A DNA stretch of 62,451 bases from Pseudomonadota bacterium. GTDB taxonomy: Bacteria; Pseudomonadota; Gammaproteobacteria; Eutrophobiales; Eutrophobiaceae. Location of the stretch: positions 1-62,451 of the forward strand of contig JADFPU010000001.1 of assembly GCA_022562175.1 (NCBI GenBank). Direction: 5' to 3'. Each line of letters opens with the position of its first letter. Within the stretch, counting starts at the first letter, position 1. The notes beneath the pieces were generated by a model. It was not told the DNA's origin, ran no database searches, and worked only from the letters and a program-made list of their open reading frames with translations. The translations under genes and the position numbers were made by a program. Positions 8,128 through 59,530 of the stretch are shown here, one piece after another.

Positions 8128-8142
8128 CGATCCACGAACAAA

Positions 8143-14334: not shown

Positions 14335-17187
14335 TCATGCGTTTAACAGAGATATCAGAGCTTTATTAAGACTTGATTCAATTCTGTTTTTATATTTAAG
14401 AAAATGGATTGTTTGCAGATCTTCTACAGATGATTCAATAAACATATTGCGTGATAAATCAATATCAGCGATATAAATAGGGTAAGCTTCTCCGTTTGAG
14501 CGATGCTTCAAAACATGTTTTGCAGTAGCAATGAATATATCATCTCCATATTCAAGTGACGAAAATTCATTATCCTGGCAATATATTGTCAGCATGGTCT
14601 GTTTATTATCATTCATATCACCAACCACCTGTATATTAAAGCAACTCTTTGAGTAAGGCTCTGGTGTAACTTCGATCAAACTCGCCAGGTATTGCTTTCC
14701 CCTGTTTTTTGACAGAAAATAAAATTCGACTGATATTTTATCAGTCGGTAAGTTATCACCACCACGCAGTATTTCACGCCGCTCGCTGATGGAAGAGAAA
14801 AACAGATTAAAATAATTGACTAATGACTGACTATTGTAAAATGGCATCACCTGATTAAACAATGAACCTCTCTCATCAATGATAAAAATATTTGCTTCCT
14901 TGTTCTCGACATAAAAAAACATCTGAATAACAGATGGTTTATTTAGCCTGTAGATGACAGGTATTGGTGAATGCCAGTTTATTTTTTCATCAAAGATTAC
15001 CGGCCCATAGCCAGGACGTGGTGAGCTGAGTTTATTTATCAAGCTGGCGGCAGAATTTGCCGTTGCATAGGTTAACTTGCCTTCATTTGATTCAGTTATA
15101 TAGAAACTATCTTCAGCTATTAACACATAGCGTGTCAGTTCTGCGTGTGGGTGTCCGAAATAGCTGTTAATGATGTCAGTGAAAAGAGGGGCGATGCGTC
15201 TTGAAATGGTATTCCCATAAGAGGGTGAGAAACAAAAACTGCTTATTATGGTCGGTGGAAGTTGTTTCTGTATAGGTGACCAGCGAAGGTAGTCACAGAT
15301 ACACTGCATCAGTCCTTTTATGCCGGTGTAGCTGTAAATTAATATTTCTTCCCAACTGGTAGCAACAATCAGGTCAAACGACTTGGCCAGATTCTCGTGC
15401 TTGCCGCCATAACTTAACGCATCATCACGGTTGCTGAACAGCAGTTTGTTTTCATTTTGTACAGCCTGTTTAAGTTTTACACCAACATTGATGAATAATC
15501 CGCTGGTAATGGCTATCGCCGGGTTGTTGAGATCATTGAAATTTGATTTCTTTATACTTCCATCAGGGAACAATTTTTCCAATGTTATGATGATGGATTT
15601 TAATTCCTTGATTGATACAGACAAGTTATATGAATGCACAGATATGGCTGTTGCAGAATTAATTATTTGATTGAAGTGGCACCAGGCGAGTAATTCCATG
15701 ACACTATGCGCTCTTTTAAGCGGTTTTCTATCGCCGATGTTGTGAGGGCTAATTTGACCACGAAAAAGCAGGTATCTATCCTTGCCATCATTATGTTCCA
15801 GGTGACAGATGGAGATTTCCCGTTCAAACAGGTTAGGAGCAATGCCACGATTTATAATTTCAACCTTGCCCGCCTTGCGTTCAAAGGCTGCATACAGTTT
15901 TCGTCCGAGTATATTCAGTTCCGCCTGACTGACGCGTGAAACTTCTGCATGCTGCCGGGCGAAATCAGAGAGAAATCGATAACTTTCCTGGAACGCCTTG
16001 ACGAGTAACTTTCGTTCATCAATGACATTATCTATGCGCCATGATTCTCGTGAATCCAGTATGGAAAGTTTTTCACTGTCCCAACCCCAGTCCAATAACA
16101 TATTTCCAAGAGTTTCTCTTCGCCAGTTAGTTAATCCTTTTTTGATTTTCTGACTCATGCGTAGATTAATCTTGAAGTAAAAGCATTCCCTGAAGAGATC
16201 TAGACGATCTTTTTCAATCCGGATCATTAAATATTCCTCGATCTTTTTATACATCATGATATAGGGATCAAGGGCGACGAATTCCGTGACGTTATTGTAT
16301 ACCGCTTTTTTGAATGACAGACTTAGCAGCTCGATATGCGGATGTTCACTTGCATAGACTTCCATTAACAGGAGTTTGAGGACAGATTTATAAGGTGAAT
16401 ATATACCTTTATAAAGTTGCCAGACTGCCGCGCCAAAAAATTCATCAGTAGGAATATTTGCGACATCACCAAAATCGACAACATCATCTTTGTCCAGTTG
16501 ACCACTATCAAATAACGCAGCAATGTATTGTTCATAATATGGCTCCTGATCAGGTGGTACTAACCACCAGACCGGAAAGCGACCAGCGATCAGCAGACTG
16601 GATCGGTAAAACTCATCCAGCAGCAGATAATGTTGAGCCGAGCCACTGCTTTCCGATGACAAATTATCATGCTGTCCCTGTTTAAATGTCTGATCATCAA
16701 ACACAAAAAAATGTACTTCCAGGCGTAACTCCATCGCCCAGGTTTCAATCTGCCTGGCTTTTTCTGTTAGTTCTTCCAGTCTGTCTACTGAAATGTCTGA
16801 TGTATGGATCAGCCATATATCAAAATCGCTTTTACTGCTGTAGGCAATGGTTCCACTACTACCCATGCAAAACAGGGCGAGAATATCTATTTTATGGCGC
16901 ATGCGCCGATCCAGCTTAAAGTCGGGGAAGTGTCTGGATACGCCTTTAATGGCAGCCTTGGTCGGCGAGTATTGTGAGACACCGGCAGGGGTGTTTTGTG
17001 TCACATAACCAGGTAGCTCCGGTTGATTGGTATGAAACAGTAACGGTAACAGATCCAGGAAATCACGCTGGCTGGCTGGCAGGCATTCTTGTGTACGCAG
17101 GATTCGCTCACGGTTGATCCTCAGGAATTTATCCTGAATTTTACGGACGTGATTCGGTGCAAAATTGGCTAAAGCGGTTTCTGCCAT
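14335..17187 (-). CDS. cyaA: class I adenylate cyclase
   Basis: 950 aa. The N-terminus (RINRERILRTQECLPASQRDFLDLLPLLFHTNQPELPGYV) and the overall length are typical of enterobacterial-type CyaA. Confidence 0.9.
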   Translation of the reverse strand: MAETALANFAPNHVRKIQDKFLRINRERILRTQECLPASQRDFLDLLPLLFHTNQPELPGYVTQNTPAGVSQYSPTKAAIKGVSRHFPDFKLDRRMRHKIDILALFCMGSSGTIAYSSKSDFDIWLIHTSDISVDRLEELTEKARQIETWAMELRLEVHFFVFDDQTFKQGQHDNLSSESSGSAQHYLLLDEFYRSSLLIAGRFPVWWLVPPDQEPYYEQYIAALFDSGQLDKDDVVDFGDVANIPTDEFFGAAVWQLYKGIYSPYKSVLKLLLMEVYASEHPHIELLSLSFKKAVYNNVTEFVALDPYIMMYKKIEEYLMIRIEKDRLDLFRECFYFKINLRMSQKIKKGLTNWRRETLGNMLLDWGWDSEKLSILDSRESWRIDNVIDERKLLVKAFQESYRFLSDFARQHAEVSRVSQAELNILGRKLYAAFERKAGKVEIINRGIAPNLFEREISICHLEHNDGKDRYLLFRGQISPHNIGDRKPLKRAHSVMELLAWCHFNQIINSATAISVHSYNLSVSIKELKSIIITLEKLFPDGSIKKSNFNDLNNPAIAITSGLFINVGVKLKQAVQNENKLLFSNRDDALSYGGKHENLAKSFDLIVATSWEEILIYSYTGIKGLMQCICDYLRWSPIQKQLPPTIISSFCFSPSYGNTISRRIAPLFTDIINSYFGHPHAELTRYVLIAEDSFYITESNEGKLTYATANSAASLINKLSSPRPGYGPVIFDEKINWHSPIPVIYRLNKPSVIQMFFYVENKEANIFIIDERGSLFNQVMPFYNSQSLVNYFNLFFSSISERREILRGGDNLPTDKISVEFYFLSKNRGKQYLASLIEVTPEPYSKSCFNIQVVGDMNDNKQTMLTIYCQDNEFSSLEYGDDIFIATAKHVLKHRSNGEAYPIYIADIDLSRNMFIESSVEDLQTIHFLKYKNRIESSLNKALISLLNA

Positions 17188-27433: not shown

Positions 27434-27443
27434 AATCAAATAC

Positions 27444-27986: not shown

Positions 27987-28026
27987 ATCAGTATCTTTAG
28001 CATAAAGCGTCACTTAGTTATTTTTT

Positions 28027-34038: not shown

Positions 34039-34085
34039 AGGATTATTTTATTGAAACACAGTTATGCTGTGTTCAAGTATTTACT

Positions 34086-41143: not shown

Positions 41144-41271
41144 TACTTACCCCGTGTAAGCATTCCTGATGCATAAGCAAATATTGACATACAATCTCTA
41201 TCGACACAAATCGAAAGGACATATTGGTAAATTACTGTGCAACAAATGGCTCAAATCTCAAGACAATTGGG

Positions 41272-41925
41272 TTATTCGTTACTGTTTTCCATTTGTTCAA
41301 TCTTTCTTTCTATCTCGGCGACCAGACCGTCGAATCCTTTTGCCCGGATGACGGCGGCATATTCAGCTCTTTTTAAGGATAGATCATTTACACCGTTTGC
41401 TATAACACTGATGATCAACCAGTTACCGTCCTTTTGATGCATTAAATAATTGAGTTTTATCGGCTCCTTTTTAACACGCAGCAGTTCTGTTTTAATCAGA
41501 AGACGTCCCTTTTTTAATACCTCTTTGGAAACTTCCCGAAATTGCTCGTCGTTATAATCATTAAATCGTGAGGCATAGGTCGCTATGCTGAGCTGATTAA
41601 ACATTTCAATGAAATTTGATTTCTGTAGCGCAGTTAATTTTTTCCAGTATCGGCTCAGGATAACTTTAACGATTAGCGGCGTGTCAAACAGTGACGAGAT
41701 GACAGGCGCCAGTTGGTTAAATCTAGCTTGATAACCAAGCGTGTCCGACTGCTGCATCACCTCTAAAAGCTTCTGGTGCAATCGCTCGACTGTTTCACTT
41801 GCCTCGGCAAATTCCTCCGTCGGCGCGGCTGTTACCGGGGAAACCAGTCCAACAGCCCATAACAGGAGGATTGTGCACAGTATTCCGCCTCCGCAAATCC
41901 GTGCTGATACAGTGTTTAATTTCAT
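41272..41925 (-). CDS. MlaC/Ttg2D-like periplasmic lipid-binding protein (HpnM-like)
   Basis: Start taken at MKLNTV, giving a signal peptide ending VTA-AP and removing the overlap with the upstream gene. It has toluene-tolerance Ttg2D family features (ILSRYWKKLT, YASRF). The HpnM label is based on context. Confidence 0.65.
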   Translation of the reverse strand: MKLNTVSARICGGGILCTILLLWAVGLVSPVTAAPTEEFAEASETVERLHQKLLEVMQQSDTLGYQARFNQLAPVISSLFDTPLIVKVILSRYWKKLTALQKSNFIEMFNQLSIATYASRFNDYNDEQFREVSKEVLKKGRLLIKTELLRVKKEPIKLNYLMHQKDGNWLIISVIANGVNDLSLKRAEYAAVIRAKGFDGLVAEIERKIEQMENSNE

Positions 41926-41971
41926 TGTGTCTAGTGTGTCTAGAGGTTTGACAGTGAAATCACGAAAAGTT

Positions 41972-44229: not shown

Positions 44230-44478
44230 TAAGATACTCCATTATTATTAATTTGATAGTTTCCCCAAGCGTGAGGATTTTTGTAAAAAACTGCTTTAAT
44301 ATGCCTAAAAATTAGTAAGATAAAGTAACAGACGATAAAAGTACAGATTTGTTTCCTGACATTGGGTTAATATCCCTGTTGTTTTTCTGCGTCCCAAAAA
44401 GGATACACTCCTTGCAAGGATGTAAAGCCAAATTCATAATACAGTTACTGGCCTTTTTTTTTAAAAAAAAGTATATAG

Positions 44479-46427: not shown

Positions 46428-47513
46428 TCACGCTCCACGCTTTACGCTCAATATCTGTTCCACCGCAACCAAAAACCTTTGCAAGTCTTGCTCTGTGACC
46501 GCGCCCATGACGGATATTCTAAACAGTGTCCTGGCGAACCCACCCTGGCCGGCATATATAACAAAACCTCTTTCTTTAAGACCATCATGCAAGGTTTGGT
46601 AGCTTATACCCTCGGGCAAATGAAAGGCGTTCAAGACGCAGGATGAGTCTGCTTCGGCAAGTAATGCTCTTATCCCCAGTGCCTGCAGCCCATTACGGAC
46701 TATGGTCATTTTCTGCCGGTATTGTTTATGTCTGGCTTGCCAGCCACCGTCGTTACTGTGTTCATTGAGTGCTTCATCCAATGCATAGAAGGCTTGCACG
46801 GATTGGGTAAAAGGGGTGCTGCCGGCGTCTTGTTGTTTCAAATAAGTCGCCAGATGTAAATATAAGGAACGTTGAACATGCGCTGCCTGCTTAATGGCAT
46901 CACGTCGGCTGATCACGAATGAGGTACCGGGTACGCCATGCAGGCATTTATTTGCTGTAGCGGCGCAGGCAATTATGTTCCAATCGTGAAAGTTGATCTG
47001 TTCTGCTGCAAAACTACTGACAGCATCAACCAGTAAAGGGATGTTTTTTTGCGTGCAGATCCCGGCGATCTGTGCAATATCATTCAAGCGGCCACTGGTT
47101 GTTTCATGCTGAACGACGGCAACATGTGTCACACCGTCGGATAGTGATTGTTCAAGTTCGGCGACATTGATCAGTTCTCCCCATGCATGGTGCAGAGACA
47201 GATGGTCGATATTGTAAATATCGGCAATTCGGCTCAAGCGTTCACCATAGACACCATTCTCAATGATTAATAACTTGGCTTGTGCAGGCATCAGGCTGGT
47301 GAGCATGGCCTCCATCGCAGACGTGCCTGAGCCGGTGAGCAAGACTGCCGCCCAGTCATCGGGGTTTAACGCATAAATATCAAGCAGCTTTTTACGAATG
47401 CCGTTTTGCAGCATGCTGAACTCAACTTCCCGGTGACACAAATCAGGTTTCAGCATGGCGTTGCGTACACGCTCTGAAAGGTTAACCGGGCCGGGGCTGA
47501 GTAAAATAGTCAT
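46428..47513 (-). CDS. 2-aminoethylphosphonate:pyruvate aminotransferase (class V)
   Basis: 361 aa with the N-terminus LLSPGPVNLSERV and a PLP-Lys context (ATANKCLHG). It is last in the pepM-ppd operon. Confidence 0.8.
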   Translation of the reverse strand: MTILLSPGPVNLSERVRNAMLKPDLCHREVEFSMLQNGIRKKLLDIYALNPDDWAAVLLTGSGTSAMEAMLTSLMPAQAKLLIIENGVYGERLSRIADIYNIDHLSLHHAWGELINVAELEQSLSDGVTHVAVVQHETTSGRLNDIAQIAGICTQKNIPLLVDAVSSFAAEQINFHDWNIIACAATANKCLHGVPGTSFVISRRDAIKQAAHVQRSLYLHLATYLKQQDAGSTPFTQSVQAFYALDEALNEHSNDGGWQARHKQYRQKMTIVRNGLQALGIRALLAEADSSCVLNAFHLPEGISYQTLHDGLKERGFVIYAGQGGFARTLFRISVMGAVTEQDLQRFLVAVEQILSVKRGA

Positions 47514-47520
47514 GCAAAGC

Positions 47521-48675
47521 TTAGAACCTTGAATTAATGTGCTGCATGAGGCGTCTCAGCACATCGGCTGGGCTTATACCAGGCCGTGCAAGATTTTCGA
47601 TGGTGCCGGCTGTTATTTTTAAATGAGCAAACCGTGGCCCGTGCGCGGCATTATGTTCAAACAGTTTGTCGATCATGACCGGATCAGCACCACTATATGC
47701 CACACTGTAGCCGCAGGCGCTGGCAATATCTGCAAAGGCGACATTGCCTGTGACTGTAGACTGTGCACCCGTGGAATCATGCGCTTCATTATCCAGCAGG
47801 ATATGAATAAAATTATTACCGGCATAACTACCGATCGTGGCAAAGTTGCCCATGCGCATCAGTGCAGCCCCGTCTCCATCGATGACAACAACTGTTAGAT
47901 CAGGACGGGCAAGCGACAGGCCTAAACCCAGAGAGGATGCGCAGCCCATGGAGCCGACCATATAAAGGTGATTATTTCGATCAGCAATGCTGAATAGTTC
48001 ACGACCTGTATAGCCGGTGGTGGCAATGGTGACAGTATCAAGTTCCTGGCAATTTGCGATAATGGTTTTTAAAGCATCATGTCTGGATATATATTTCCTG
48101 TTCGGACTATCGAATATCTTCTTCTCAACAAGTGCTGTATCAATTACAGAAATCGGATTGCGGGCCAGTTTGTGGGGTGCAACGCTGCCTTTCTTCATAA
48201 TGAATGCATAAGGCCGTTGTTCACGCTGCATATATTGTGTGGCATGTTCAAGTGCTGCCTGTATATCAGCTTGTTCGGATGGAAAATATTCCCAGGGTAC
48301 TTGCATGAGGTCAAACAGGTCGCCGCTGATCTTTCCCATCAATTCATGTTGTGGTTCATCAGTTAACTCTGCAGCGCCACGATGTGTGGCGATGATCAGT
48401 ATTGGAATACGAAAGATATAGCACAGGGATGTTATCGGGCTGACAGCATTTCCCAGGCCTGAATTCTGCATTAATACGACAGAAGCTTTACCACCTATAG
48501 CGGCGCCGGCGGCAGTTGCCAGGGCATCGCCTTCATTCGCAGACGAGACATAGTTCAGGGTTTCATCATTAATCACATAATTGATGAATGGTGTTAAAAA
48601 CGAACATGGCACGCCGGTGTAATACCTGAAGCCGTGATTGCGAGCGGCTTCAACGAAACTTCCTGCACTGATCAT
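47521..48675 (-). CDS. ppd: phosphonopyruvate decarboxylase
   Basis: 384 aa with the TPP-binding motif GDGAALMRMGNF...LLDNEAHDSTG. The N-terminus (FRYYTGVPCSFL) is typical of Ppd. Confidence 0.87.
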   Translation of the reverse strand: MISAGSFVEAARNHGFRYYTGVPCSFLTPFINYVINDETLNYVSSANEGDALATAAGAAIGGKASVVLMQNSGLGNAVSPITSLCYIFRIPILIIATHRGAAELTDEPQHELMGKISGDLFDLMQVPWEYFPSEQADIQAALEHATQYMQREQRPYAFIMKKGSVAPHKLARNPISVIDTALVEKKIFDSPNRKYISRHDALKTIIANCQELDTVTIATTGYTGRELFSIADRNNHLYMVGSMGCASSLGLGLSLARPDLTVVVIDGDGAALMRMGNFATIGSYAGNNFIHILLDNEAHDSTGAQSTVTGNVAFADIASACGYSVAYSGADPVMIDKLFEHNAAHGPRFAHLKITAGTIENLARPGISPADVLRRLMQHINSRF

Positions 48676-48698
48676 ATGAACATCAGCCCGGGGGGAAA

Positions 48699-50354
48699 TT
48701 ATGCCGAACCACGTGTAAAATCACTGGCGCGGTCAATATCATCCAGCGCATTTACATCAAGCCAATGTCCATGGATGTAATGGACATTGATTTTTTTCCC
48801 TTGACTAACCAGATAATTCAACAGATCCGGGATCGTCAGTTGATGGAAATTATCCTGTTTTTGCAGGAATTCGATGGCTGCGTCCAACCATTCTCTACCC
48901 TCGTTACGTACCCTGAGCATGCCGATCCATCTGCCCGATGGTGTCCCGTAATCAACTGCTTCGTGCTCAGAGACATGTTTTAGTTCGACTGTCTGTTTAA
49001 ACAACGCGCGGTCATCAGTCTGGCTGCAATAAGCATAGTCAGGACTGCCACTGATTGAGTTTGTTTGTTGGGAGGAGTCTACGACAACAACAAAGTCCCC
49101 ATCATAATCGAGAAGATCGCTAAGGACATAGCTCCTGAATAGCAGATCGCCATACATGATTATCATGTCACTATGGTATGCCTGCTGTGCACAGGCCAGT
49201 GAACTCAACTCACCAGTGGTCTCATAATCCTCGTTTAGACAGATATCAATGCTGCTGATGTTGATGGCCTCAGCTTTATAACCTGCTACCACCGTAATTT
49301 TATTGATACCTTGCTTCTTGAACTCATCAATAAGTCTTCGGAGCAATGGCTTACCACCTATCGAAAGCATTACCTTTGGTCTATCTTCTGTCAATTCATG
49401 CAGAGCATCTCCTCTGCTGGCGGCCAGTACTATCGCATGGGCTTCCTGCCGGTTCTTGAGATAGCGCTGCTGGGCCTGGGACAATTCGTCTGCCCCCTGC
49501 AGGGAAAATATTTTATCGACTGTGGCAATTTGGTGTTCTATACCCGCCAGGGATTCATGCAGAAAGATCTGACTGCTTACCTGTTCCATTGCTGCGACCG
49601 AAGCACGGATCATATGATTTGCCCAGATCACCAGGCTGATACCGGCTTTACGAAAGACTTCTGTCGGTGTGCTGTAGTATTTTGTGGGCACAATAACCAG
49701 CGGTGAGCGTCCCGCCCATTCATTGGCAAATGCAATGACCTCATCAGGATGTGAGAGCTTGCTATGGATCAATATTGCATCCGCCCCTGCAGCATGATAA
49801 GCCTCGGCACGTCGCAGGGCTTCAGTTAAATCCCAGCCCGCGATCAATGCCTCAATTCGGGCAATGATACAAAAATCCGCATCGGTCTGGCTGTCTTTAC
49901 CGGCCTTTATTTTTCCACAGAATTCATCAATGTCCACTAAAGGTTGTCGCTCGCCCTCTATAAAGCTGTTTGTCTTGGGGAACTGCTTATCTTCAATGCA
50001 AACGCCGGCAATACTACGTTGTCCCAGCTTTTTGACCAATCGTCGCATATTATTGAAATTTCCATAGCCAGTGTCACCGTCCAGTAATATGGGGATGTCA
50101 GTGACATCAGACATGAATTCCAGCATATCAACAACCTGGGTCCAGCTCGCTTCGTTACTGTCACGTACACCAAACTGCGCAGACAACGCCAGGCCACTGG
50201 CCCAGATACCCTTGAAACCTGACTGCTCGGCTATACGTGCGGAAATGCCATTGTGAGCTTCTAAAATAAATTCAAGCGTAGTGGATTTGAGCAAGCTGCG
50301 TAGTTGCTGACTTTTACTTGCTGACGCATCTATATTGGGTGGTTGTGGTGCCAT
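48699..50354 (-). CDS. pepM: phosphoenolpyruvate mutase fused to a C-terminal nucleotidyltransferase-like domain
   Basis: 551 aa. The PepM hallmark [10 protein letters not shown] (EDKxxxxxNS) lies at 49965-49994. From about residue 305 (48702-49442) there is an NTP-transferase fold whose usual LAAGxGxRL loop reads LAASRGDAL. Confidence 0.9.
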
Positions 50355-50360
50355 TTTAAT

Positions 50361-51098
50361 CTATTCAATATGGTCAAGAATTTGTGTTGCATGTTCGATA
50401 TCTTCCGGAAAGTCTATCTCGATCCACGAAAGTCCACTGATATCTTCAAAGTCGAATGTGTCCGGTTCGGCAAGCAACAGATCACGTATCACTTCTTCAT
50501 AGGGCTCATCTGTACGGTTATTATCTATATAATGCTGCGCCAGTTCTGCCAGCTTGTTTGCTGTCGATGCTGAGAATCTGAAAAAACCTACTGATTCCCC
50601 CTGAAAATCGAATTGCAGATCTTTGTCGATCTGTTTGCGAAAATCAATTAACAGTCCATCACGTATGCACAATTTAACGGGTTCATCACCTGCTTCAAAG
50701 TCTCTGTCCAGCAGAAAACAATTATTCAGGTCTGTATTGATCAGTGTTTGTATTATTCGTATGTCGTACAGCACGTCGGCGTCCATCAGTACAATATCGT
50801 CACCCGATTGCAAAAACTCCCTGGCACAAAACAGACTCACTATACTACCGGCCTGGTAATCGGGATTATATACTGTTCGTATCGCGGCGCTGGATTCTGT
50901 CGCAGAAAGCTCATGCAGGATCTGTTGCTGTTGGTAGCCGGTAATGATGATTATTTCCGAAATAGCGTGTTGGTTGAGGTTATGCAGATGGCGTTGCAGC
51001 AAAGAGCGTCCGGCAAATTCAAGCAGGCATTTGGGTTTGTCATTGTTTATATCACCCAGCCTTTTGCCGGTACCTGCGGCAAGAATTATAGCTTTCAT
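50361..51098 (-). CDS. nucleotidyltransferase (LicC/PntC-like cytidylyltransferase)
   Basis: The start is taken at MKAIILAAGTGKRLG, which carries the canonical NTP-transferase loop. The ORF-track extension to 51152 has no support. Its stop lies 7 nt before the pepM start. Confidence 0.8.
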   Translation of the reverse strand: MKAIILAAGTGKRLGDINNDKPKCLLEFAGRSLLQRHLHNLNQHAISEIIIITGYQQQQILHELSATESSAAIRTVYNPDYQAGSIVSLFCAREFLQSGDDIVLMDADVLYDIRIIQTLINTDLNNCFLLDRDFEAGDEPVKLCIRDGLLIDFRKQIDKDLQFDFQGESVGFFRFSASTANKLAELAQHYIDNNRTDEPYEEVIRDLLLAEPDTFDFEDISGLSWIEIDFPEDIEHATQILDHIE

Positions 51099-51293
51099 TT
51101 GAATTTGGTTCAGTATCAGTATTTGGTTTTTGTAAAGATGGAATATTATCACGATTCCCCATGTCGGATTCTTAAGTTACACACAAGTAATGACGATAAC
51201 AGTATTATCTTGCAGGTGAAAACAAAACCGGCCTGCAGTAATGTCTATATTTACTACCATGCTTTATATGCATGAAGTACTATATTGTCGAAA

Positions 51294-52589
51294 ATGTCGT
51301 TTCAAACACCTGAAAAACTCGGAAAGTATACGATCCACAAACAAATCGGACGTGGCAGCATGGGTATTGTTTACCAGGGATACGATCCGTACGCCGACCG
51401 CAAAGTAGCGGTCAAGGTAGCATTGGCGGAATCGCTCAAGGACAGTGAATCCGGTGCGCGCTATCGTAAGATGTTTTTCAATGAGGCGCATACTGCCGGC
51501 ATGCTCAAGCACCCGAATATAGTTAAGATCTTCGATGCCGGTGCTGATGGCGATGATTGTTACATCGTCATGGAATTGATAGAGGGGGCTGATACGTTAA
51601 AGAGTTTCTGTAAGCCGGAAACTCTGCTGCCTGTAGAACTGGTTATTGAAATTATTTTTAAATGTGCCAAGGCACTTGACCATGCACATCAAAATGGTGT
51701 TGTCCATCGTGATATCAAGCCAACAAATATCCTGATCACGAAGGATAAGGATGTAAAGATTGCTGATTTCAGTATTGCCCATCTTGTTACTTCAGATACG
51801 ACCCATACCATGCCAATCGGTTTTATCGGTTCACCCCGATATATGTCTCCCGAGCAGGTACAGGAAGACAATATATCTAACCAGACTGATTTGTTTTCGC
51901 TGGGTATTGTGATGTATGAACTGTTGACCGGCAAACACCCGTTCATTGCGGACAGTTTTTCCAGGTTGATACACAAGATCATTAATGAAAAACAACCGCC
52001 ATTAAGAACTTATCGCTCGGATCTGCCGGAGATACTTGAGAAAATAGTTCATCATGCATTACAGAAGGATCAGAACAGGCGTTATAAAATGGGACTGAAT
52101 ATGGCGGCTGATTTATCACTGGCGTTTGATTACCTGGAGGAACCACAAAGAGATATTGATATACAGGAAAAATTTAATGCTATACAGCAACTGGATTTTT
52201 TTGATGAATTCGTCGAATCAGAAATCTGGGAGATTATCAGGGCTTGTGTATGGCAGGAGTTTGAGAAAGGATCTGAAGTTATTGTGGAAGGTGATATTGA
52301 TGACTCATTTTATATCATTACCTCAGGCGAGGTCGAAGTACGCAAGGAGGATAATGTTATCGATATGCTCAAAAAAGGTGACTGTTTCGGGGAAATGGGA
52401 TATTTATCGAAAACCAGGCGATCAGCCACGATAATAGCTAAACAGAGGTTGCAACTCATGAAAATCAACGCGACCTTGATCGAGCAGGTCTCTATTGATT
52501 GCCAATTGCATTTTAGTCGCGTCTTTCTAAGCACACTGGTCAGACGCTTGTCGGCTACAACAGCGTTGGTCATTGCGCCTGCAGACTAG
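51294..52589 (+). CDS. Ser/Thr protein kinase (Hanks-type) with a C-terminal cyclic-nucleotide-binding domain, paralog 1
   Basis: Kinase motifs are complete: GRGSMGIVY, VAVKV, HRDIKPTNIL, DFSIAH and GSPRYMSPEQ. The C-terminal ~125 aa have a cNMP-binding beta-roll with phosphate-binding cassette GDCFGEMGYLSKTRRSATIIA (F at 52386). The ATG at 51294 gives the same N-terminal length as paralog 2. Confidence 0.85.
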   Translation: MSFQTPEKLGKYTIHKQIGRGSMGIVYQGYDPYADRKVAVKVALAESLKDSESGARYRKMFFNEAHTAGMLKHPNIVKIFDAGADGDDCYIVMELIEGADTLKSFCKPETLLPVELVIEIIFKCAKALDHAHQNGVVHRDIKPTNILITKDKDVKIADFSIAHLVTSDTTHTMPIGFIGSPRYMSPEQVQEDNISNQTDLFSLGIVMYELLTGKHPFIADSFSRLIHKIINEKQPPLRTYRSDLPEILEKIVHHALQKDQNRRYKMGLNMAADLSLAFDYLEEPQRDIDIQEKFNAIQQLDFFDEFVESEIWEIIRACVWQEFEKGSEVIVEGDIDDSFYIITSGEVEVRKEDNVIDMLKKGDCFGEMGYLSKTRRSATIIAKQRLQLMKINATLIEQVSIDCQLHFSRVFLSTLVRRLSATTALVIAPAD

Positions 52590-52922
52590 CCCGTGTCCAT
52601 CAAGAAAGAATAATTCTCGCCAAGGCGCAAAGATCGCAAAGTTATAAAATATCCATAGCTTAGTCCTTAAGGTCTGAAACCATTATTAAGGTCAGCATTT
52701 TAAACACAGAGACACGGAGTACACGGAGTTAGGATTATATTTGTTCTTTATCTCCGTGTACTCCGTGCCTCCGTGTTTAGATTTCAGATTATCTGACAAC
52801 TCTAGACTATGAATATTCCATTAAGATCCTACCTATGACTGAATGTTGGTTTAAAATAATATTACGATTTCTTTCATGGTGTCTTTGCGAGAAAAATTAT
52901 AGCGTTTATGGACGGGCACTAG
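52586..52922. mobile_element. nested MITE (copy D): outer-family element carrying an inner hairpin MITE at 52654-52837
   Basis: The ends read CTAGCCCGTGTCCAT... and ...ATGGACGGGCACTAG. The outer arms match copy A in the opposite orientation. The inner element runs from CATAG to CCTACCTATG, with hairpin arms at 52702-52728 and 52752-52778. The left terminal CTAG contains the kinase 1 stop codon. Confidence 0.8.
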
Positions 52923-52942
52923 TTCGTTATCCGAGCAACGAG

Positions 52943-54538
52943 CTATGTTTTATTTTTAAAATATTGCTCAATCAACAACGAGGTCGATGCATCATGCTTT
53001 GACTCGATCGGTGGTTTCTGTTCCAGATCGCTTATAATTTCTGTCGCCAGTTTTTTGCCAAGCTCTACTCCCCACTGATCGAATGGATTAATGTCCCATA
53101 TCATCGCCTGAACATAAGTGCGGTGTTCATACATGGCCAGCAGCATGCCCAGAATTTTTGGTGACAATTTTGGATAAGTAATCGTTGTGCTGGGTCTGTT
53201 ACCAGGGAAATGTTTGCATGGTTCTGTATTATTTTCCTGGCCGAGCATCAATGCCTTGCTTTGTGCGAAACAATTCGCGACAACTTTATGGTGTTTGTCA
53301 TCGCGACTGCTTTGCATAGCTATCAGAAAATCCACCGGTACAAGACGCGTGCCTTGATGTAATAACTGGAAGAAGGCATGTTGCGCATTGGTGCCTGCCG
53401 CTCCCCAGAAAACGGGTGATGAATGCAGTTCAAGCGCTTGTCCCTCAGAGCTTACGCCTTTGCCGTTGCTTTCCATGATGAGTTGACTCAGGTAAGCCGG
53501 TAATAGCTGCAGACCATGATCATAAGGTATGACTGCGTGTGTTTCGGCATTAAAAAAATTGTTATACCAGACATCGAGCATGGCAAGGATGATGGGGATA
53601 TTGTTTTCAGCAGGCGCATTATAAAAATGCTCATCCATTGCATGCGCACCCGCCAGGAAGTCTGCAAAACTGTTATTGTCTGTATAGACTGCGATGGCTA
53701 ATCCTACTGCTGACCAGACTGAGTATCGTCCACCCACCCAATCCCATATTTGAAATAAACGATCTGCTGAAATACCGAATTCCTGTATAGCGCTTTTATT
53801 TGACGAGACCGCAATGAAATGCCTGTGGATTTCGTGGCAACCATTATCGATAAGCCACTGCTTCGCCAGCCGGGCATTGGCATGAGTTTCGAGCGTGCTG
53901 AATGACTTTGATGTGACAATGAATAATGTTGTCTCAGGATCGGAATCATCCAGTACCCTATACAGATCCTGTGTATCAAGGTTCGCAACAAATGCAATTT
54001 TTATATTGCTGCTACGGTAGTCATATAAGGCATCCACAACGAGACGTGGTCCCAGGTCAGAGCCGCCAATGCCAATATTCACTACCTTGCTAATCGGTTT
54101 TCCCGTTGAACCCTTGTGCTCCCGATTGTGTAATGCCTTGACAAAGTTATACATCCGCTCAAGTTCGGCTTTTACCTGTGCGGGGATGGTTTTTTGATCG
54201 GTATCAGGCAGTTTATCATCAGGAGACCTCAGGGCAGTGTGCAATGCTGCACGATGCTCTGTTTTATTTACTTGCTGGCCTGAAAACAGTGCGGAGATTT
54301 TTTCCCTGATATTTGTAGCATTCGCCAGGGAAATGAGTAGATCGAATGTTTCATCTGTAATACGGTGTTTTGAGAAGTCGATCAGTAATCCATTCAAACC
54401 GGTTGAAAATTTCTTCGCCCTGGCTGGATCCTGGGCGAACAGGTCACGCATGTGTAGTTTGGCAATTGCCCGATGGTGTTCCTTGAGCTGATGCCATACG
54501 TATTCTTTTGACGGGCTTTGATTTTCTGAACTTCGCAT
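52943..54538 (-). CDS. pgi: glucose-6-phosphate isomerase
   Basis: 531 aa with PGI family motifs (IGIGGSDLGP, GGRYSVWSAVG). Confidence 0.96.
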   Translation of the reverse strand: MRSSENQSPSKEYVWHQLKEHHRAIAKLHMRDLFAQDPARAKKFSTGLNGLLIDFSKHRITDETFDLLISLANATNIREKISALFSGQQVNKTEHRAALHTALRSPDDKLPDTDQKTIPAQVKAELERMYNFVKALHNREHKGSTGKPISKVVNIGIGGSDLGPRLVVDALYDYRSSNIKIAFVANLDTQDLYRVLDDSDPETTLFIVTSKSFSTLETHANARLAKQWLIDNGCHEIHRHFIAVSSNKSAIQEFGISADRLFQIWDWVGGRYSVWSAVGLAIAVYTDNNSFADFLAGAHAMDEHFYNAPAENNIPIILAMLDVWYNNFFNAETHAVIPYDHGLQLLPAYLSQLIMESNGKGVSSEGQALELHSSPVFWGAAGTNAQHAFFQLLHQGTRLVPVDFLIAMQSSRDDKHHKVVANCFAQSKALMLGQENNTEPCKHFPGNRPSTTITYPKLSPKILGMLLAMYEHRTYVQAMIWDINPFDQWGVELGKKLATEIISDLEQKPPIESKHDASTSLLIEQYFKNKT

Positions 54539-54652
54539 AGCCCGGTATTTTTACATAAAACTATCCAGAAGGCTTGTGAACTGGTGCTGGCATATCGAAG
54601 CAAACCCTGAATTAATCAGCGTCTCATCAGATATGTCTGTACTCCACGCTAC

Positions 54653-55096
54653 TTACCCACTGCCAGCGATATAATGCTCCAGTTGTTCAATGATAAATTC
54701 CTTTTCTGAAATGGTAGTCTTTACTGCATCCATCACCGTCAGGATTCCGACTACCTTATCGTTTTCAATGACCGGTAAATGCCGGATTCGATGCTTTGCC
54801 ATCAGCAGCATACACTCTTCTATGCTGTTCTCGGGCGTCACACAAATAATCTTGCTGGTCATGATCTCCCGGACGCTGGTGCTTTTTGAAGATCGATCCT
54901 TAAGGATTACCTTTCGTGTATAATCCCGTTCCGAGATGATGCCCACCAGCTTGTCATTTTCCATGACCACCAACGCACCTACTTCATGCACTGACATGAG
55001 CGTAATAGCTTCAAAAACTGTGATATCGGCTGATATTGAGTAAACTTCGTTACCCTTTTTATCAAGCAGTTGACGAACATTTGTATTCATAGACAT
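54653..55096 (-). CDS. CBS-pair domain protein
   Basis: 147 aa consisting of two CBS motifs and no other domain. Confidence 0.85.
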   Translation of the reverse strand: MSMNTNVRQLLDKKGNEVYSISADITVFEAITLMSVHEVGALVVMENDKLVGIISERDYTRKVILKDRSSKSTSVREIMTSKIICVTPENSIEECMLLMAKHRIRHLPVIENDKVVGILTVMDAVKTTISEKEFIIEQLEHYIAGSG

Positions 55097-55401
55097 CCCT
55101 CCAAGTGTTTCATCAGTAATTTTGGCACCTAAGGTGGATAATCACAATATTTCTGAGCTGGAAATTAACCGTATTCCCATGGATTCCTGTCAGTAATCAT
55201 CCGCCGTTGGACGATTACCTCGATAGCAGATTGCTATAGTGTGACTGACATTGGCGCTTGGTGTCAGTACTGTGGTTGTGAAAGCCCGGACAATTCGAGT
55301 AACATTAACAGGTACAACCGATCACGTCTAAATTTCTAGTGTTCGGGTTCATGATCAAGATAGGCCCTTGCAGGGAATATCATTAATGATTTCGTGCAGT
55401 T

Positions 55402-56694
55402 ATGACAGATAAAGCGCCGAATAAACTGGGCAAATACCAGGTAAAAGAGGAAATCAGTCGTGGTAGTATGGGGATAGTATACCTCGGTCATGATCCTTAC
55501 ATAAATCGCCTTGTCGCCATCAAGATCGCGCTGGTAGAACCCCCCGACGATCCCGGCGCAAGTGATGACTTCCGCAAGATGTTCTTTAACGAGGCACATA
55601 CGGCAGGCATGCTGACCCACCCGAATATTATCAACATCTATGATGCGGGTGTGGACGAGGATACCTGCTACATTGTCATGGAGTATATCGAAGGTGGCGA
55701 CACGCTGAAATTACATACCAGGCCGGAAACATTATTACCGACGGAAAAAGTTGTTGAAATCATCTTTAAATGTGCAAAGGCGCTTGATTATGCGCATCGA
55801 CAAGGAGTCGTTCACCGGGATATAAAGCCTTCTAATATTCTCATCACCCGGGACAAGGATGTCAAGATAGGTGACTTTAGTATCGCCCATATCAATAACC
55901 CCGACTCGACCGAATCGAAACCTGTCGGCATGCTGGGATCACCCCGTTATATGTCGCCGGAACAACTAACGGAAGAATACATTACCAACCAGACCGACTT
56001 GTTTTCACTGGGCGTCATCATGTATGAGTTACTGACAGGCAAACATCCCTTTGCGGCCGAAAATTTTTCCCGTCTGGTTAACATGATAATGAATGAAGAT
56101 CCGTTACCGATGCGTGATTTTCGAGCGGATATTCCAGAGGTGTTGGAAAAGATTGTCCGCAAGGCGTTACATAAAAATGTGGACGAACGTTATCAGATGG
56201 GTCTGGATTTTGCCGCTGACCTTAGCAAGGCATTTGAAAATCTGCAGGGCCATCAGGAAGATATCAGTATTCAGGAGCGGTTCAACTCGGTGAAAAAGCT
56301 GGAATTCTTCCAGGGCTTTCCTGATGCGGAAATCTGGGAGATCATCCGGGCCAGCTCCTGGCATGATTATCGAAACAGTGATGAAATCATTATCGAAGGG
56401 GAACTGGATGACTGTTTTTACATACTCGTCTCCGGCAAGGTTGATGTAAAAAAAGCCAACAAAACAATACGTACACTGGGTATGGGGGACTGTTTTGGGG
56501 AAATGGGTTACCTGGCCAAGACCAAGCGCTCAGCCACCATCGTCGCGGAGCAAAGTACCTCCCTGCTGAAGGTGAACTCCACCGTGATCTCACAGGTATC
56601 GTTAAATTGCCAGGTACGATTTCTTAAGGTGTTCCTGCGCACCCTGATACATCGCCTTTCGGCAACAACCGAAATCATTTCTCAGGATATTTAA
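55402..56694 (+). CDS. Ser/Thr protein kinase (Hanks-type) with a C-terminal cyclic-nucleotide-binding domain, paralog 2
   Basis: Same architecture as 51294..52589: SRGSMGIVY, VAIKI, HRDIKPSNIL, DFSIAH, GSPRYMSPEQ and GDCFGEMGYLAKTKRSATIVA. Confidence 0.85.
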   Translation: MTDKAPNKLGKYQVKEEISRGSMGIVYLGHDPYINRLVAIKIALVEPPDDPGASDDFRKMFFNEAHTAGMLTHPNIINIYDAGVDEDTCYIVMEYIEGGDTLKLHTRPETLLPTEKVVEIIFKCAKALDYAHRQGVVHRDIKPSNILITRDKDVKIGDFSIAHINNPDSTESKPVGMLGSPRYMSPEQLTEEYITNQTDLFSLGVIMYELLTGKHPFAAENFSRLVNMIMNEDPLPMRDFRADIPEVLEKIVRKALHKNVDERYQMGLDFAADLSKAFENLQGHQEDISIQERFNSVKKLEFFQGFPDAEIWEIIRASSWHDYRNSDEIIIEGELDDCFYILVSGKVDVKKANKTIRTLGMGDCFGEMGYLAKTKRSATIVAEQSTSLLKVNSTVISQVSLNCQVRFLKVFLRTLIHRLSATTEIISQDI

Positions 56695-56752
56695 AACGTT
56701 CACAGTGCATGGTTCAACATCCAAGGATAAACTGTGAACCTTGAACGTTTTT
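56693..56752. terminator. bidirectional rho-independent terminator between kinase 2 and the TonB-dependent receptor
   Basis: AAAACGT/ACGTTTT plus TTCACAGT/ACTGTGAA form a bulged helix of about 14 bp. It is followed by TTTTT on the plus strand and TTTT on the minus strand, and sits between convergent stops. Confidence 0.75.
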
Positions 56753-56782
56753 ATTGTTTCATGAGCAACGAGCAACGCTCTG

Positions 56783-59356
56783 TTAGAATCGGTAACTCGC
56801 TTCCACGCCGAATGTTCGCGGCGTGCCCAGTACACAACGTTGCATACCGCCATCATCACCGCCTAAAATTGCCGGATTGACCAGGCCTAGTGTTGTACCA
56901 ATGGGTTGGTTAAAGATGGTTTGGCAATAACCTTCATCCCCCGCGTTTTTGACAAATGCGGACAGTTCCCATTTATCAGCCGGCCCTCTCAGGCCCAATT
57001 TTGCATTGAACAAGCCGTAAGACTCTTGCAAGGATTGTAGGTTCTGGTTCGTTTCTGCACCAACATTCTGGTCATCGACAAACTGGTATTCACCACGAAC
57101 AAACCATGACCAGTTTGTATTTGCCAGGCTATCTGTCCATTCAGCCACCATCGATAACTGCCATTTGGGTGAGAAATGGTTACGTTTGCCGGCAAGGTCC
57201 TGGCCTGTGGGGATAACACCTGGCGGTGTTAATGCAATCACGGCCGGCAGTGGTGTTGCATCCGGGAATCTCTGGAATTCAGAATCAAGATAACTCACGC
57301 CCAGCACGGCATAAAGCTGATCGACTGGCCGGGCCTGGATATCGAGTTCTATGCCTTGTTGACAGAGTTCACCTGCATTCTGTACGATAAAACTTACCCC
57401 ATCAAATTGTCTGTCCTGGAAGTCATCGATTTCAGTGCGGAAGAAAGTCAGGTTGGCAATCATCCTATTGCCAAACAGGGTGCTCTTAAAGCCTATTTCA
57501 TAATTATCCACAGTCTCTGATCTAAATGTCCTGGGTATCACACGATTGGCACCGTCAGAATTAAAGCCTCCTGACTTATAACCTGTGGATACCGTTGCAA
57601 ACATCATAAGGTCATCAGTCAAGTAATAGCGGGCATTACCTAACCAGGTAATTTCATTTTCGTCGAATTTAAGATTGGGAAAGGACTCGTTTATTCTTAA
57701 ATTTATCGAGAACGGCAAGCCGGTAGGTGCGACCGGTGAATCGAGAATAGGATTATTGACTATCTGTGTATAACTGCCGTCCTTTTCGTCATTGGTCCAG
57801 CGTATTCCTCCGGTGAGGCTTAATCTGTCTGTGACATTAAAGGTCAACTGTCCATACAGGGCGATACTGGTCATATCCTGTTGAAATTCCCCATCAACCG
57901 CTGCAGTTTGAGGAAAGGCGCTACAAGCTCCACTGGCAATAGGTGCTAATCCGATAAGAGAAGCAGCATCTGCTGCGCCTAATGCAATAGTAGCTTGAGT
58001 CGGTGTAATCCCAAATGCTGTTGTCAGGGCAAGAACCGTTGTGGTTACCCCGGTTACAATACCACCTGCTACAGCAGTAGCGAGGGGCACATTACCAGCA
58101 AAAACAGGGGTCAATCCTGAAGCCAATGGAGGTATTGCTCGTCCGGCTATCAGGTTACCAATGACCGGCGCACAAAAATCACTACCCAGGTCAAAATCTT
58201 GATCTATGGAATAATCTTCATCGTAGTAATAAAAACCGGCCACATATTCAACTTTTCCACCGGTCGGGGACAAAATCTGAATCTCCTGGGAAAATGTCTC
58301 GGTCTCGTAAGAAGTGACCCGGTTTAACAGATCTGCAGGCAGTCTCAGTGCAGATTCAAATGTGTCATTGGTCCATTTCCGGTATGCGGTAATGGAGCGG
58401 ATGGTATGTCCCCCAAAACTCCAGCTGATATCAGCAGACAGGCCCCATTGTTGGTCGTCTGCCGTATCCCTATGGTCCTGGTTTAAATCATAATCAAACG
58501 TATCGCTGCCATCCGGGGCCGGGCCGCTTAATATGGCCGATAATGTAGGGAGATATGCAGGCTGAAGCGTATCCGTTTTGACTTCAATCACCCCGCCTTC
58601 ATTATCCACTGATGAATAATCCACGGTGAGTGTAATATCGATATCATCAGTTGGCGTTAAATATAGTTTTGCACGTACACTGGCATCTTCCCAGGCACCG
58701 ACTTCATCCCGGCTCCCTCCTGCCGTAAAAGTATTATCACCATAACCATCCCGGTCCGAATAGCTGAATGAGAGACGGCCGGCAGCGTTGTCAGACAGCC
58801 TGCCACTGAATGAGCCGGAAATCCGTTTTGCGTCAAAATTAGCATAACTGCCTCGAATACTGCCTTCAAATTCGTCCGATGGTTTACGGGTTCGAATATT
58901 CAGGGCGCCCATTGAGGCGTTACGACCGAAAAATGTGCCTTGCGGGCCGCGCAAGACTTCGACCATCTCCAGATCGGTTAAACTACCGACAATAGAAGAG
59001 GGACGCGGGTAATAGACGCCATCTATAAACACCGCAACACTGGGTTCAATGGCATTATTTCCGACCGAGCCAACACCGCGCATAATGATGCGATTGTTTG
59101 CAACCTGGCTGGATTGGCTAAGGGTTAAGTTGGGAGTGAATTGACCAAGTGCCTGCAGGGTATAAATACCCGAATCTTCCATGAAATCACCACTGAATGT
59201 TGAAATGGAGATAGGCACGTCCTGGACATTCTCTGCGCGTTTTTGCGCAGTTACCACAACTTCCTCAATTTGTCCCAGGGCCGTGTTTGTCCATGTCATC
59301 ACATAAAGACACAGCAGAACTGCCGTAAGTAAATTTGATCTGGAAAGATTCCTCAT
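56783..59356 (-). CDS. TonB-dependent outer-membrane receptor
   Basis: Start taken at MRNLSRSNLL..., with a signal peptide ending ALG-Q. The plug domain (EEVVVTAQKRAENVQDVPISIS) and the C-terminal ...EASYRF with terminal Phe are present. Substrate is unknown. Confidence 0.9.
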   Translation of the reverse strand: MRNLSRSNLLTAVLLCLYVMTWTNTALGQIEEVVVTAQKRAENVQDVPISISTFSGDFMEDSGIYTLQALGQFTPNLTLSQSSQVANNRIIMRGVGSVGNNAIEPSVAVFIDGVYYPRPSSIVGSLTDLEMVEVLRGPQGTFFGRNASMGALNIRTRKPSDEFEGSIRGSYANFDAKRISGSFSGRLSDNAAGRLSFSYSDRDGYGDNTFTAGGSRDEVGAWEDASVRAKLYLTPTDDIDITLTVDYSSVDNEGGVIEVKTDTLQPAYLPTLSAILSGPAPDGSDTFDYDLNQDHRDTADDQQWGLSADISWSFGGHTIRSITAYRKWTNDTFESALRLPADLLNRVTSYETETFSQEIQILSPTGGKVEYVAGFYYYDEDYSIDQDFDLGSDFCAPVIGNLIAGRAIPPLASGLTPVFAGNVPLATAVAGGIVTGVTTTVLALTTAFGITPTQATIALGAADAASLIGLAPIASGACSAFPQTAAVDGEFQQDMTSIALYGQLTFNVTDRLSLTGGIRWTNDEKDGSYTQIVNNPILDSPVAPTGLPFSINLRINESFPNLKFDENEITWLGNARYYLTDDLMMFATVSTGYKSGGFNSDGANRVIPRTFRSETVDNYEIGFKSTLFGNRMIANLTFFRTEIDDFQDRQFDGVSFIVQNAGELCQQGIELDIQARPVDQLYAVLGVSYLDSEFQRFPDATPLPAVIALTPPGVIPTGQDLAGKRNHFSPKWQLSMVAEWTDSLANTNWSWFVRGEYQFVDDQNVGAETNQNLQSLQESYGLFNAKLGLRGPADKWELSAFVKNAGDEGYCQTIFNQPIGTTLGLVNPAILGGDDGGMQRCVLGTPRTFGVEASYRF

Positions 59357-59530
59357 CAGCGTTTCCCCCATGTTTTTAAAGTATAAAATACTGTTATGCC
59401 TGCAACGACCCCAGCCTTGCCTGTAGTGCCCTGCGCGGGAACTCATGATTCTCATTCTATAATTCAAGCACATTTATGAACATCAAGAAAGGTTATTCGT
59501 GAACCAATTAGCGGCTGCTACAATTTTGCT

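Follow-up and report, generated by a model that had tools for sequence, protein, structure and literature searches.

The stretch of DNA analysed here, referred to as the window, comprises 62,451 nucleotides from a bacterium of the Pseudomonadota (Gammaproteobacteria; Eutrophobiales; Eutrophobiaceae; assembly GCA_022562175.1, contig JADFPU010000001.1, positions 1 to 62,451 of the forward strand). It contains two genes in the same orientation, at 51294-52589 (K1) and 55402-56694 (K2), each of which encodes a Hanks-type Ser/Thr kinase with a C-terminal cyclic-nucleotide-binding (CNB) domain. A first-pass annotation, made from the letters alone, had described both open reading frames (ORFs) and proposed that the proteins are paralogous kinases switched by cyclic nucleotides (cNMPs). 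Both ORFs were found where it had placed them, and the features of the locus are the following.

51294..52589, plus strand: K1, soluble Hanks-type Ser/Thr kinase with a C-terminal CNB domain, 431 aa (ORF and Pfam)
51321..52133, plus strand: K1 kinase domain, aa ~10-280 (Pfam, Foldseek, phmmer)
52143..52574, plus strand: K1 CNB domain, aa ~284-427 (PF00027; secondary structure of the AlphaFold2 (AF2) model)
52377..52439, plus strand: K1 phosphate-binding cassette (PBC), G362-DCFGEMGYLSKTRRSATII-A382
52943..54538, minus strand: pgi, glucose-6-phosphate isomerase (PF00342, 583 bits; NF001211, 728 bits)
54653..55096, minus strand: stand-alone CBS-pair protein, 147 aa (PF00571, two repeats, 92.6 bits)
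55402..56694, plus strand: K2, paralogue with the K1 architecture, 430 aa (ORF and Pfam)
~55429-56241, plus strand: K2 kinase domain
~56251-56682, plus strand: K2 CNB domain
56485-56547, plus strand: K2 PBC

A TTG at 51285 is a possible alternative start for K1, three codons longer; alignment of the orthologues favours the ATG at 51294. The PF00069 (Pkinase) profile matched aa 12-265 of both K1 (E=1.6e-53, 182 bits) and K2 (E=7.9e-52, 177 bits), and the PF00027 (cNMP_binding) profile matched aa ~321-398 of K1 (E=5.8e-18, 65.1 bits) and K2 (E=8.6e-15, 54.9 bits). All four scores exceed the Pfam gathering cut-offs of 31.7 bits for PF00069 and 27.5 bits for PF00027, and by these profiles both proteins belong to the Hanks kinase superfamily and the CNB superfamily. 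The motifs GRGSMG/SRGSMG, VAVK/VAIK, HRDIKP(T/S)N, DFS, SPRYMSPEQ and FGEMGYL-x4-(R/K)RSAT were located in the two proteins, which bears out the kinase core and cNMP-binding signature that had been read from the letters. K1 and K2 are 61% identical across 426 aa with zero gaps, and the identical runs quoted as a sign of their paralogy (RKMFFNEAHTAGML, NQTDLFSLG, MYELLTGKHPF and GDCFGEMGYL) were recovered by BLASTP. Since the highest 19-residue Kyte-Doolittle window reached only 1.52 in K1 and 1.03 in K2, neither protein has a transmembrane segment, as had been annotated. Searches of NCBIfam gave sub-threshold, partial matches only, in which the kinase region hit PknB-type kinases and the C-terminal region hit CRP; K1 and K2 are therefore covered by no curated protein family. 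The PASTA/PknB-type receptor kinase model NF033483 scored 291 bits in the kinase region only, against a cut-off of 450, and the CRP model scored 36.5 and 27.9 bits in the CNB region only, against a cut-off of 266. The HTH_Crp profile had no match in K1 or K2.

We aligned 73 K1-type and 62 K2-type orthologues (n=135) taken from 78 related genomic loci. The key kinase residues of K1 are the glycine-rich loop (G-loop) G19-R-G-S-M-G24, K41, E64, H138-R-D140, N145, D158-F-S160, T172, S185-P-E187 and R263. K41, E64, H138-R139-D140, K142, N145, D158, F159, S185-P186-E187, D199 and R263 were invariant in 135/135 sequences. The hallmarks of a Hanks kinase, namely the beta3 Lys, the alphaC Glu, the HRDxKxxN loop, the Asp of DFG, the Glu of APE/SPE and the alphaH-I Arg, are thus all present, and every catalytic residue of the full kinase core is kept in both K1 and K2. 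In the C-terminal domain F365-G-E-M368 of the PBC was invariant across the orthologues, R376 and A378 were each retained in 71/73 K1-type and 62/62 K2-type sequences (133/135), and the loop glycines G333 and G345 were present in 133/135 and 134/135 sequences, respectively. This is the canonical PBC in the sense of Kannan et al. 2007 (Genome Biol 8:R264), F-G-E ... R-[S/T/A]-A together with the beta2-beta3 and beta3-beta4 glycines. In the same study, canonical cAMP binders showed co-evolution of the PBC Arg and the beta2-beta3 Gly, and the PBC features of canonical cAMP/cGMP binders were lost in CNB folds with other ligands. In the predicted contacts with the ligand, E367 meets the ribose 2'-OH and R376 the phosphate. 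The residue after the PBC Arg is Thr in most orthologues (R-T-A, PKG-like) and Ser in the kinases of the window (R-S-A, as in CAP, MlotiK1 and PfPKG), so that cAMP and cGMP cannot be told apart from the PBC sequence. The C-terminal region thus answers, by profile score and by residues, to the CNB domain with a PBC that had been claimed for it. Judged from the alignment, the catalytic and nucleotide-binding motifs of K1 and K2 are intact and under strong purifying selection. Both proteins are clearly predicted to be catalytically competent, soluble, RD-type kinases, each joined by a very short linker to one canonical CNB domain.

The AF2 model of K1, built from a 76-sequence alignment, had a mean pLDDT (per-residue confidence) of 81.6 and a pTM (predicted template-modelling score) of 0.62. 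In the model the kinase is bilobal, its activation loop (167-178) is disordered and a helix at 269-282 completes its C-lobe; a very short linker of low confidence follows near residue 283. In the CNB portion two helices (284-298 and 308-317) precede a beta barrel (319-391), after which comes a long C-helix (401-427), and its secondary structure is therefore that of the CNB fold, an eight-stranded beta barrel between N-terminal helices and a C-terminal hinge/lid helix. With Foldseek the model was superimposed on the PknB catalytic domain, whose bilobal fold it reproduces, with TM scores of 0.85-0.91 (target-normalised) and a root-mean-square deviation of 2.0-3.4 A. A phmmer search with the kinase domain found Mycobacterium tuberculosis PknB with E~1e-45, and the kinase domain alone is nearest to PknB, PknA and StkP, away from the AGC kinases. 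R10 and D76 of the PknB back-to-back dimer correspond to K11 and D81 here, and the PknB activation-loop phosphorylation site T171 corresponds to T172; all three positions are invariant among the orthologues. The CNB domain alone scored ~50-72 bits against the CNB domains of PKG and of the PKA regulatory subunit (PKA-R) and ~28 bits against MlotiK1 or the CRP family; the closest solved CNB relatives of K1 are PfPKG and PKA RI-alpha, the latter at ~70 bits. PfPKG and PvPKG were the top whole-protein matches in the PDB because both domains align. None of the solved structures has the complete K1 architecture.

The two paralogues differ in the way they are constrained. In a neighbour-joining tree the K2 orthologues were monophyletic and the clade of K1 and K2 left out 76/78 other family representatives, from which it follows that the duplication is ancient and confined to this gammaproteobacterial lineage. 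The mean pairwise identities among the orthologues were the following.

Kinase domain: K1 73%, K2 70%
CNB domain: K1 60%, K2 70%
PBC: K1 73%, K2 88%
C-helix (aa 401-423): K1 67.6%, K2 92.7%

The first Gly of the G-loop was retained in 68/73 K1-type sequences as opposed to 7/62 K2-type sequences, in which this position is occupied by D (31), S (13), N (8), A (3) or G (7); the G-loop of K2 in the window lies at 55456-55473. Such asymmetric conservation of C-helix and G-loop is what sub-functionalised partners, and not redundant copies, would be expected to show, and the two sequence sets suggest a division of labour between K1 and K2.

The genomic arrangement of the pair was followed by tblastn of the window proteins against the 78 related loci, 57 of which hold both kinases. 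In the window pgi is convergent with K1 and lies between the paralogues, and the CBS-pair gene lies upstream of pgi on the same strand, divergent from K2. That these two opposite-strand genes separate the kinases had been stated in the first-pass annotation, and the NF001211 and PF00571 matches given above agree with it. The conservation of the kinase-pgi-CBS-kinase layout, which it had named as a check, is extensive: the order K1(+) pgi(-) [CBS(-)] K2(+) was found in 50/57 two-kinase loci, with the CBS gene in 28 of the 50. K1 and K2 were directly adjacent, with no pgi, in 6 loci, so that the conserved unit is the kinase pair itself, and one further locus had the CBS gene and no detectable pgi. 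The K1-type gene was upstream in all loci, and sequence type and position never conflicted. At 61-84% identity K1 is more conserved than the housekeeping gene between the kinases (pgi, 42-62%), and the pair persists in lineages where pgi has fallen to 42-47% identity and where both flanks have been replaced. An ancient duplication thus produced two genes that have been kept together, usually with pgi between them.

The family extends well beyond these loci. A word-indexed search returned >5000 homologues of K1, of which the best 120 were all ~430 aa long, all carried Pkinase and cNMP_binding domains, were 73-98% identical, bore generic names and came from metagenome-assembled genomes (MAGs) of uncultured Gammaproteobacteria or 'Thiotrichaceae'. 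At least 565 stretches encoding relatives were confirmed in species-representative genomes. A HMMER pass covered 1.84 billion representatives at 50% identity, and ~80 of its top 150 matches were 405-500 aa long and aligned end-to-end with K1 at 38-63% identity; the kinase-CNB architecture is therefore a broad family. Most of the distant ~430-aa representatives keep the catalytic and PBC residues, many have a normal DFG, and a minority have a degenerate PBC that lacks the Arg. The named distant members were MAGs of Gammaproteobacteria, one MAG of 'Deltaproteobacteria' and a large betaproteobacterial branch in the Gallionellaceae (Gallionella, Sideroxydans and Sideroxyarcus, genera having cultured species). 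No isolate sequences were found among the matches listed, and those inspected were all MAGs or single-amplified genomes (SAGs). The distant relatives in the Gallionellaceae and the deltaproteobacterial MAG are singletons in unrelated contexts, and intermediate paralogue types adjoin thiL-pgpA or sit between recN and fur. Extra singleton CNB-kinase paralogues, 45-47% identical to K1, lie at 7001-8323 of locus L086 and 7001-8305 of locus L084. Since the recN-fur type co-occurs with the K1-pgi-CBS-K2 locus in one MAG (CAYZJI01; loci L086 and L037), some genomes hold at least three CNB-kinases. In the window thiL (25811-26776) has no kinase after it. Several public MAG records with this synteny, which is distinctly non-enterobacterial, bear the titles 'uncultured Enterobacteriaceae', 'Klebsiella pneumoniae', 'Klebsiella sp.' or 'Planctomycetota' (loci L003, L016, L025, L032, L037, L045, L061; L008); these titles are probably taxonomic mislabels.

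The interpretation that we favour, with somewhat better than even confidence, is that K1 and K2 are a pair of directly cyclic-nucleotide-gated Hanks kinases. What such cNMP-switched kinases should show in sequence, fold and gene order was found throughout, and nothing that would refute them was encountered; the ligand, the gating and the substrates we infer from the sequences. A 3',5'-cNMP would bind the PBC of K1 and K2. The ligand could plausibly be cAMP, because the genome encodes the following enzyme, and cGMP would be a possible alternative.

14335..17187, minus strand: class I adenylate cyclase, CyaA (PF01295, 407.5 bits; PF12633, 232.8 bits)

The first-pass annotation had offered this cyclase as a plausible source of the ligand. 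The gene is real; it lies 34 kb from the kinases with housekeeping genes between, and it therefore has no specific link to them. By its domain matches CyaA shows the capacity of the organism to make cAMP and nothing beyond that. Binding of the ligand would shift the N-terminal helices and the C-helix of the CNB domain, which would adjoin the kinase C-lobe across the very short linker, and this shift might alter a PknB-like dimerisation of the N-lobes. The changed dimerisation could in turn alter trans-autophosphorylation of T172 in the activation loop and so switch activity. K1 and K2 may act jointly, as a heterodimer or in a two-step relay, with K2 (ultra-conserved CNB C-helix, altered G-loop) the more specialised sensor or partner and K1 the main catalytic output. 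Since pgi is conserved between the two genes, Pgi, or wider control of carbon flux, is the leading candidate target; such a role is plausible, the link being one of association. The most specific form of this idea is an obligate heterodimeric cNMP-gated kinase, with K2 as sensor or allosteric activator and K1 as output, that phosphorylates Pgi and/or the CBS protein and so switches between glycolytic and gluconeogenic flux. We regard it as improbable; if true, it would be a post-translational, CRP-independent arm of bacterial cAMP 'catabolite' control that evolved apart from PKA and PKG.

Several observations weigh against direct gating by cyclic nucleotides, or against parts of it. No PKA-style pseudosubstrate (an RRxS/A-like basic motif) is visible in the linker of K1 or K2, and a PKA-style mechanism of inhibition is therefore not supported. 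The Gly of DFG is replaced by Ser (DFS) in 133/135 orthologues. The R-T-A of most orthologues means that the ligand may be other than cAMP, and some CNB-fold proteins bind quite different ligands, such as haem in CooA and chlorophenols in CprK (Kannan et al. 2007). In six loci pgi is absent from the pair, and its link to the kinases is therefore not an obligatory one. The conserved neighbourhood of the kinase pair was found to contain neither a PP2C phosphatase nor an FHA protein nor a cyclase: genes for PP2C, FHA, CRP or phosphodiesterase partners were absent from the window and from +/-8 kb of the 78 loci, and cyclase genes were absent within the same +/-8 kb.

If K1 and K2 were instead independent, partly redundant cNMP-regulated kinases, the proximity of K1, K2 and pgi would be the inherited gene order of one lineage. 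The singleton paralogues of related genomes (recN-fur; thiL-pgpA), the single members with unrelated neighbours in the Gallionellaceae and the deltaproteobacterial MAG, the six loci in which the pair has no pgi and the failure to find a common upstream motif for K1 and K2 would all agree with this. We nevertheless think it unlikely, though worth keeping in view, since inheritance of gene order does not readily account for a pair that persists without pgi, with both flanks replaced and across lineages in which pgi is only 42-47% identical, and since the asymmetric constraint (C-helix 93% versus 68%; G-loop Gly lost in K2 only) points to sub-functionalisation. It could also be argued that the CNB-fold domain is not a cAMP/cGMP sensor at all. 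Its ligand would then be some other small molecule, or its role would be confined to dimerisation or autoinhibition, in the manner of the CooA, CprK and FNR-type folds. CNB folds have repeatedly adopted non-nucleotide ligands (Kannan et al. 2007), a minority of the distant ~430-aa relatives have a degenerate PBC without the Arg, and a 2023 review notes CNB-like regulators that sense an unidentified cNMP. To this we give little credence, given that the clade of K1 and K2 has retained the full canonical PBC along with the two signature glycines, whereas families with non-nucleotide ligands have non-canonical PBCs (Kannan et al. 2007), and that the nearest sequence relatives are bona fide cNMP-binding domains.

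An anti-phage defence module was considered as well, in the form of a PD-T4-6 or MADS-type kinase effector or of a Pycsar-like CNB effector that responds to a cyclic pyrimidine. The kinase domains do match the PADLOC models PD-T4-6 and mad6 with E ~1e-80, and the CNB domain weakly matches PycTIR (E=4.5e-6). The PADLOC matches, however, extend over no more than aa ~10-290, the generic kinase domain, and lack specificity; the genes lie in core housekeeping DNA, at a fixed chromosomal position and with 61-84% identity across deep lineages, and no cyclase or other defence gene is adjacent. We rejected this reading, which we consider highly improbable, because a slow, vertical core-genome pattern is the opposite of that of patchy, fast-evolving defence islands and the PADLOC matches are generic.

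Scans for regulatory signals were negative or, for promoters and terminators, uninformative. An Rfam scan of the whole window found no RNA family at the gathering threshold, and a scan of 51100-56850 for promoter and terminator consensus sequences gave counts at or below the shuffle expectation. The CRP-site consensus TGTGA-N6-TCACA, with up to one mismatch, occurred 0 times in the window against 2.5 expected. A k-mer search for operators upstream of K1 (n=60) and K2 (n=28) gave no convincing motif, the best 8-mers being present in only 10/60 and 13/28 sequences.

The flanks of the kinase pair are less deeply conserved than the pair itself, and the downstream genes vary. A cluster of the 2-aminoethylphosphonate type lies upstream in ~43 loci and is absent from the deeper branch; in the window it adjoins hopanoid-associated genes (40367-46371). 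The flanking features of the window are the following.

46428-51152, minus strand: 2-aminoethylphosphonate-type cluster, adjoining K1 upstream and divergent from it
50361-51152, minus strand: second nucleotidyltransferase
48699-50354, minus strand: fusion of phosphoenolpyruvate (PEP) mutase and cytidylyltransferase (nucleotidyltransferase)
47521-48675, minus strand: phosphonopyruvate-decarboxylase-like thiamine pyrophosphate (TPP) enzyme
46428-47513, minus strand: class V aminotransferase
44479-46371: dxs
43093-44229: HpnH-like radical SAM enzyme with DUF3463
41972-43096: GT2 glycosyltransferase
40367-42024: MlaA/MlaC-like lipid transport genes
56783-59473, minus strand: TonB-dependent receptor, downstream of K2 in the window

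The composition of the phosphonate cluster suggests decoration of lipids or glycans with a CMP-activated phosphonate. Synteny of the radical SAM gene and dxs with the kinase genes extends to 20-32 related loci. On the other side of the pair, in 10-18 related loci (L004, L030, L015, L040 and others), K2 is followed by a conserved same-strand trio of genes for secreted or outer-membrane-looking proteins of ~604, ~455 and ~292 aa, which is absent from the window.

The spacer between K1 and pgi contains a repeat, which the first-pass annotation had called a nested miniature inverted-repeat transposable element (MITE).

~52670-52810, no strand assigned: palindromic repeat element, ~130 bp, in the convergent spacer between K1 and pgi

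Its hairpin arms (52692-52731 and 52749-52788) are 40 nt long and 83% complementary. Further intergenic copies lie at ~27325-27465 and ~34083-34223, with a mean column identity of 82% across the three, and the core motif CACGGAGTACACGGAG, in inverted pairs, has 6 matches against 0.02 expected. The repeat itself, a palindrome of ~130 bp in three copies, is real, whereas the evidence for its nesting is weak, the outer inverted repeat being 25 nt long and 72% complementary. The element looks like a repeat of the repetitive extragenic palindromic (REP) or MITE kind and does not belong to the signalling system. Its copy after K1 enlarges the spacer up to pgi to 353 bp; in related genomes the median is 11 bp. 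An ORF of 189 aa that adjoins one of the repeat copies (27444-28013, minus strand) matched no Pfam family at E<=1e-5.

Compared with characterised systems, K1 and K2 come closest in logic to PKG, above all the apicomplexan enzymes, in which kinase and CNB domain(s) are likewise carried on one polypeptide; CNB-B of PfPKG even has the PBC sequence RSATII, as in the kinases of the window. In PKG the CNB domains come first and number 2-4, whereas in K1 and K2 the kinase comes first and is followed by one CNB domain. PKG is an AGC kinase with a C-tail, whereas K1 and K2 have a PknB-like core without the AGC C-tail and, unlike PKG, lack an N-terminal dimerisation or autoinhibitory segment. The kinase-CNB fusion thus looks independent of PKG, convergent in logic and not orthologous, and by domain order, single CNB domain and PknB-like kinase the pair is a functional analogue of PKG and PKA and not a member of their family. 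With the PKA holoenzyme (R2C2) it shares the logic that leads from cAMP through a CNB domain to a Ser/Thr kinase, but PKA is regulated in trans by a dissociable R subunit, whereas regulation would be in cis in K1 and K2, whose linker has no RRxS/A site. PknB is a membrane receptor with extracellular PASTA sensors and a DFG motif, whereas K1 and K2 would be soluble, intracellular sensors of a second messenger with a DFS motif; neither the transmembrane helix nor the PASTA repeats of PASTA/PknB-type receptors were found in them. The CRP/FNR regulators, in which the CNB domain is followed by a C-terminal helix-turn-helix (HTH), also differ, in keeping with the lack of an HTH_Crp match. In work by Kimura and colleagues from 2009, cited in the review PMC11139211, the Myxococcus xanthus Ser/Thr kinase SpkA was reportedly coupled with CbpB, a cAMP-binding homologue of PKA-R. 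SpkA and CbpB are the closest experimental bacterial analogue that we found, and they differ from K1 and K2 in being two proteins of a myxobacterium that act in trans, whereas here the CNB domain is fused and the paralogue pair is conserved. Precedents for cAMP effectors other than CRP, in which a CNB domain directly gates a fused enzyme, are the mycobacterial cAMP-gated acetyltransferase (Rv0998/MSMEG_5458) and the CNB-EAL protein Bd1971 of Bdellovibrio. Unlike in these fusions, the output of K1 and K2 is a Hanks kinase, and the signal would spread via protein phosphorylation.

The kinase-CNB architecture as such is already known, since it is annotated in public databases and mentioned in the census of Kannan et al. 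2007, where bacterial CNB domains are listed as 'attached to ... kinases' and it is suggested that phosphorylation may involve CNB function. The PBC consensus of the 'Other_bacterial' CNB family in that study, GEMALLDGEPRSATVVA, resembles the PBC of K1 and K2. The study remains at the level of a census, with no family definition, paralogue pairing, synteny or experiment. In most bacteria cAMP acts via CRP (2024 review PMC11139211), and cyclic nucleotides go unmentioned in a major review of the bacterial Hanks kinases from 2018. We found no characterised bacterial CNB-fused Hanks kinase in the reviews and full texts searched, although the wider literature could hold one; within that scope the first-pass statement that no directly cNMP-gated bacterial Hanks kinase had been characterised stands. 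Its description of an undescribed signalling system holds in so far as no characterised member was found, and does not hold for the architecture, which was already annotated and listed. What is new is how broad and how extremely conserved the family is, together with the conserved pairing of paralogues under asymmetric constraint and the linkage to pgi.

A directly cNMP-gated Ser/Thr kinase, if true, would give cyclic-nucleotide signalling in bacteria a further output that is fast and post-translational. The logic of PKA and PKG would then have been invented independently on a PknB-type scaffold, which bears on the evolution of allosteric kinase control. The compact, 430-aa design with a single CNB domain could serve as a minimal model or as a synthetic-biology part for cNMP-switched phosphorylation. 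The conserved kinase-pgi-kinase layout provides a concrete, testable hypothesis on substrate and pathway, and through the family of K1 and K2 a bacterial cNMP output independent of CRP becomes open to direct test.

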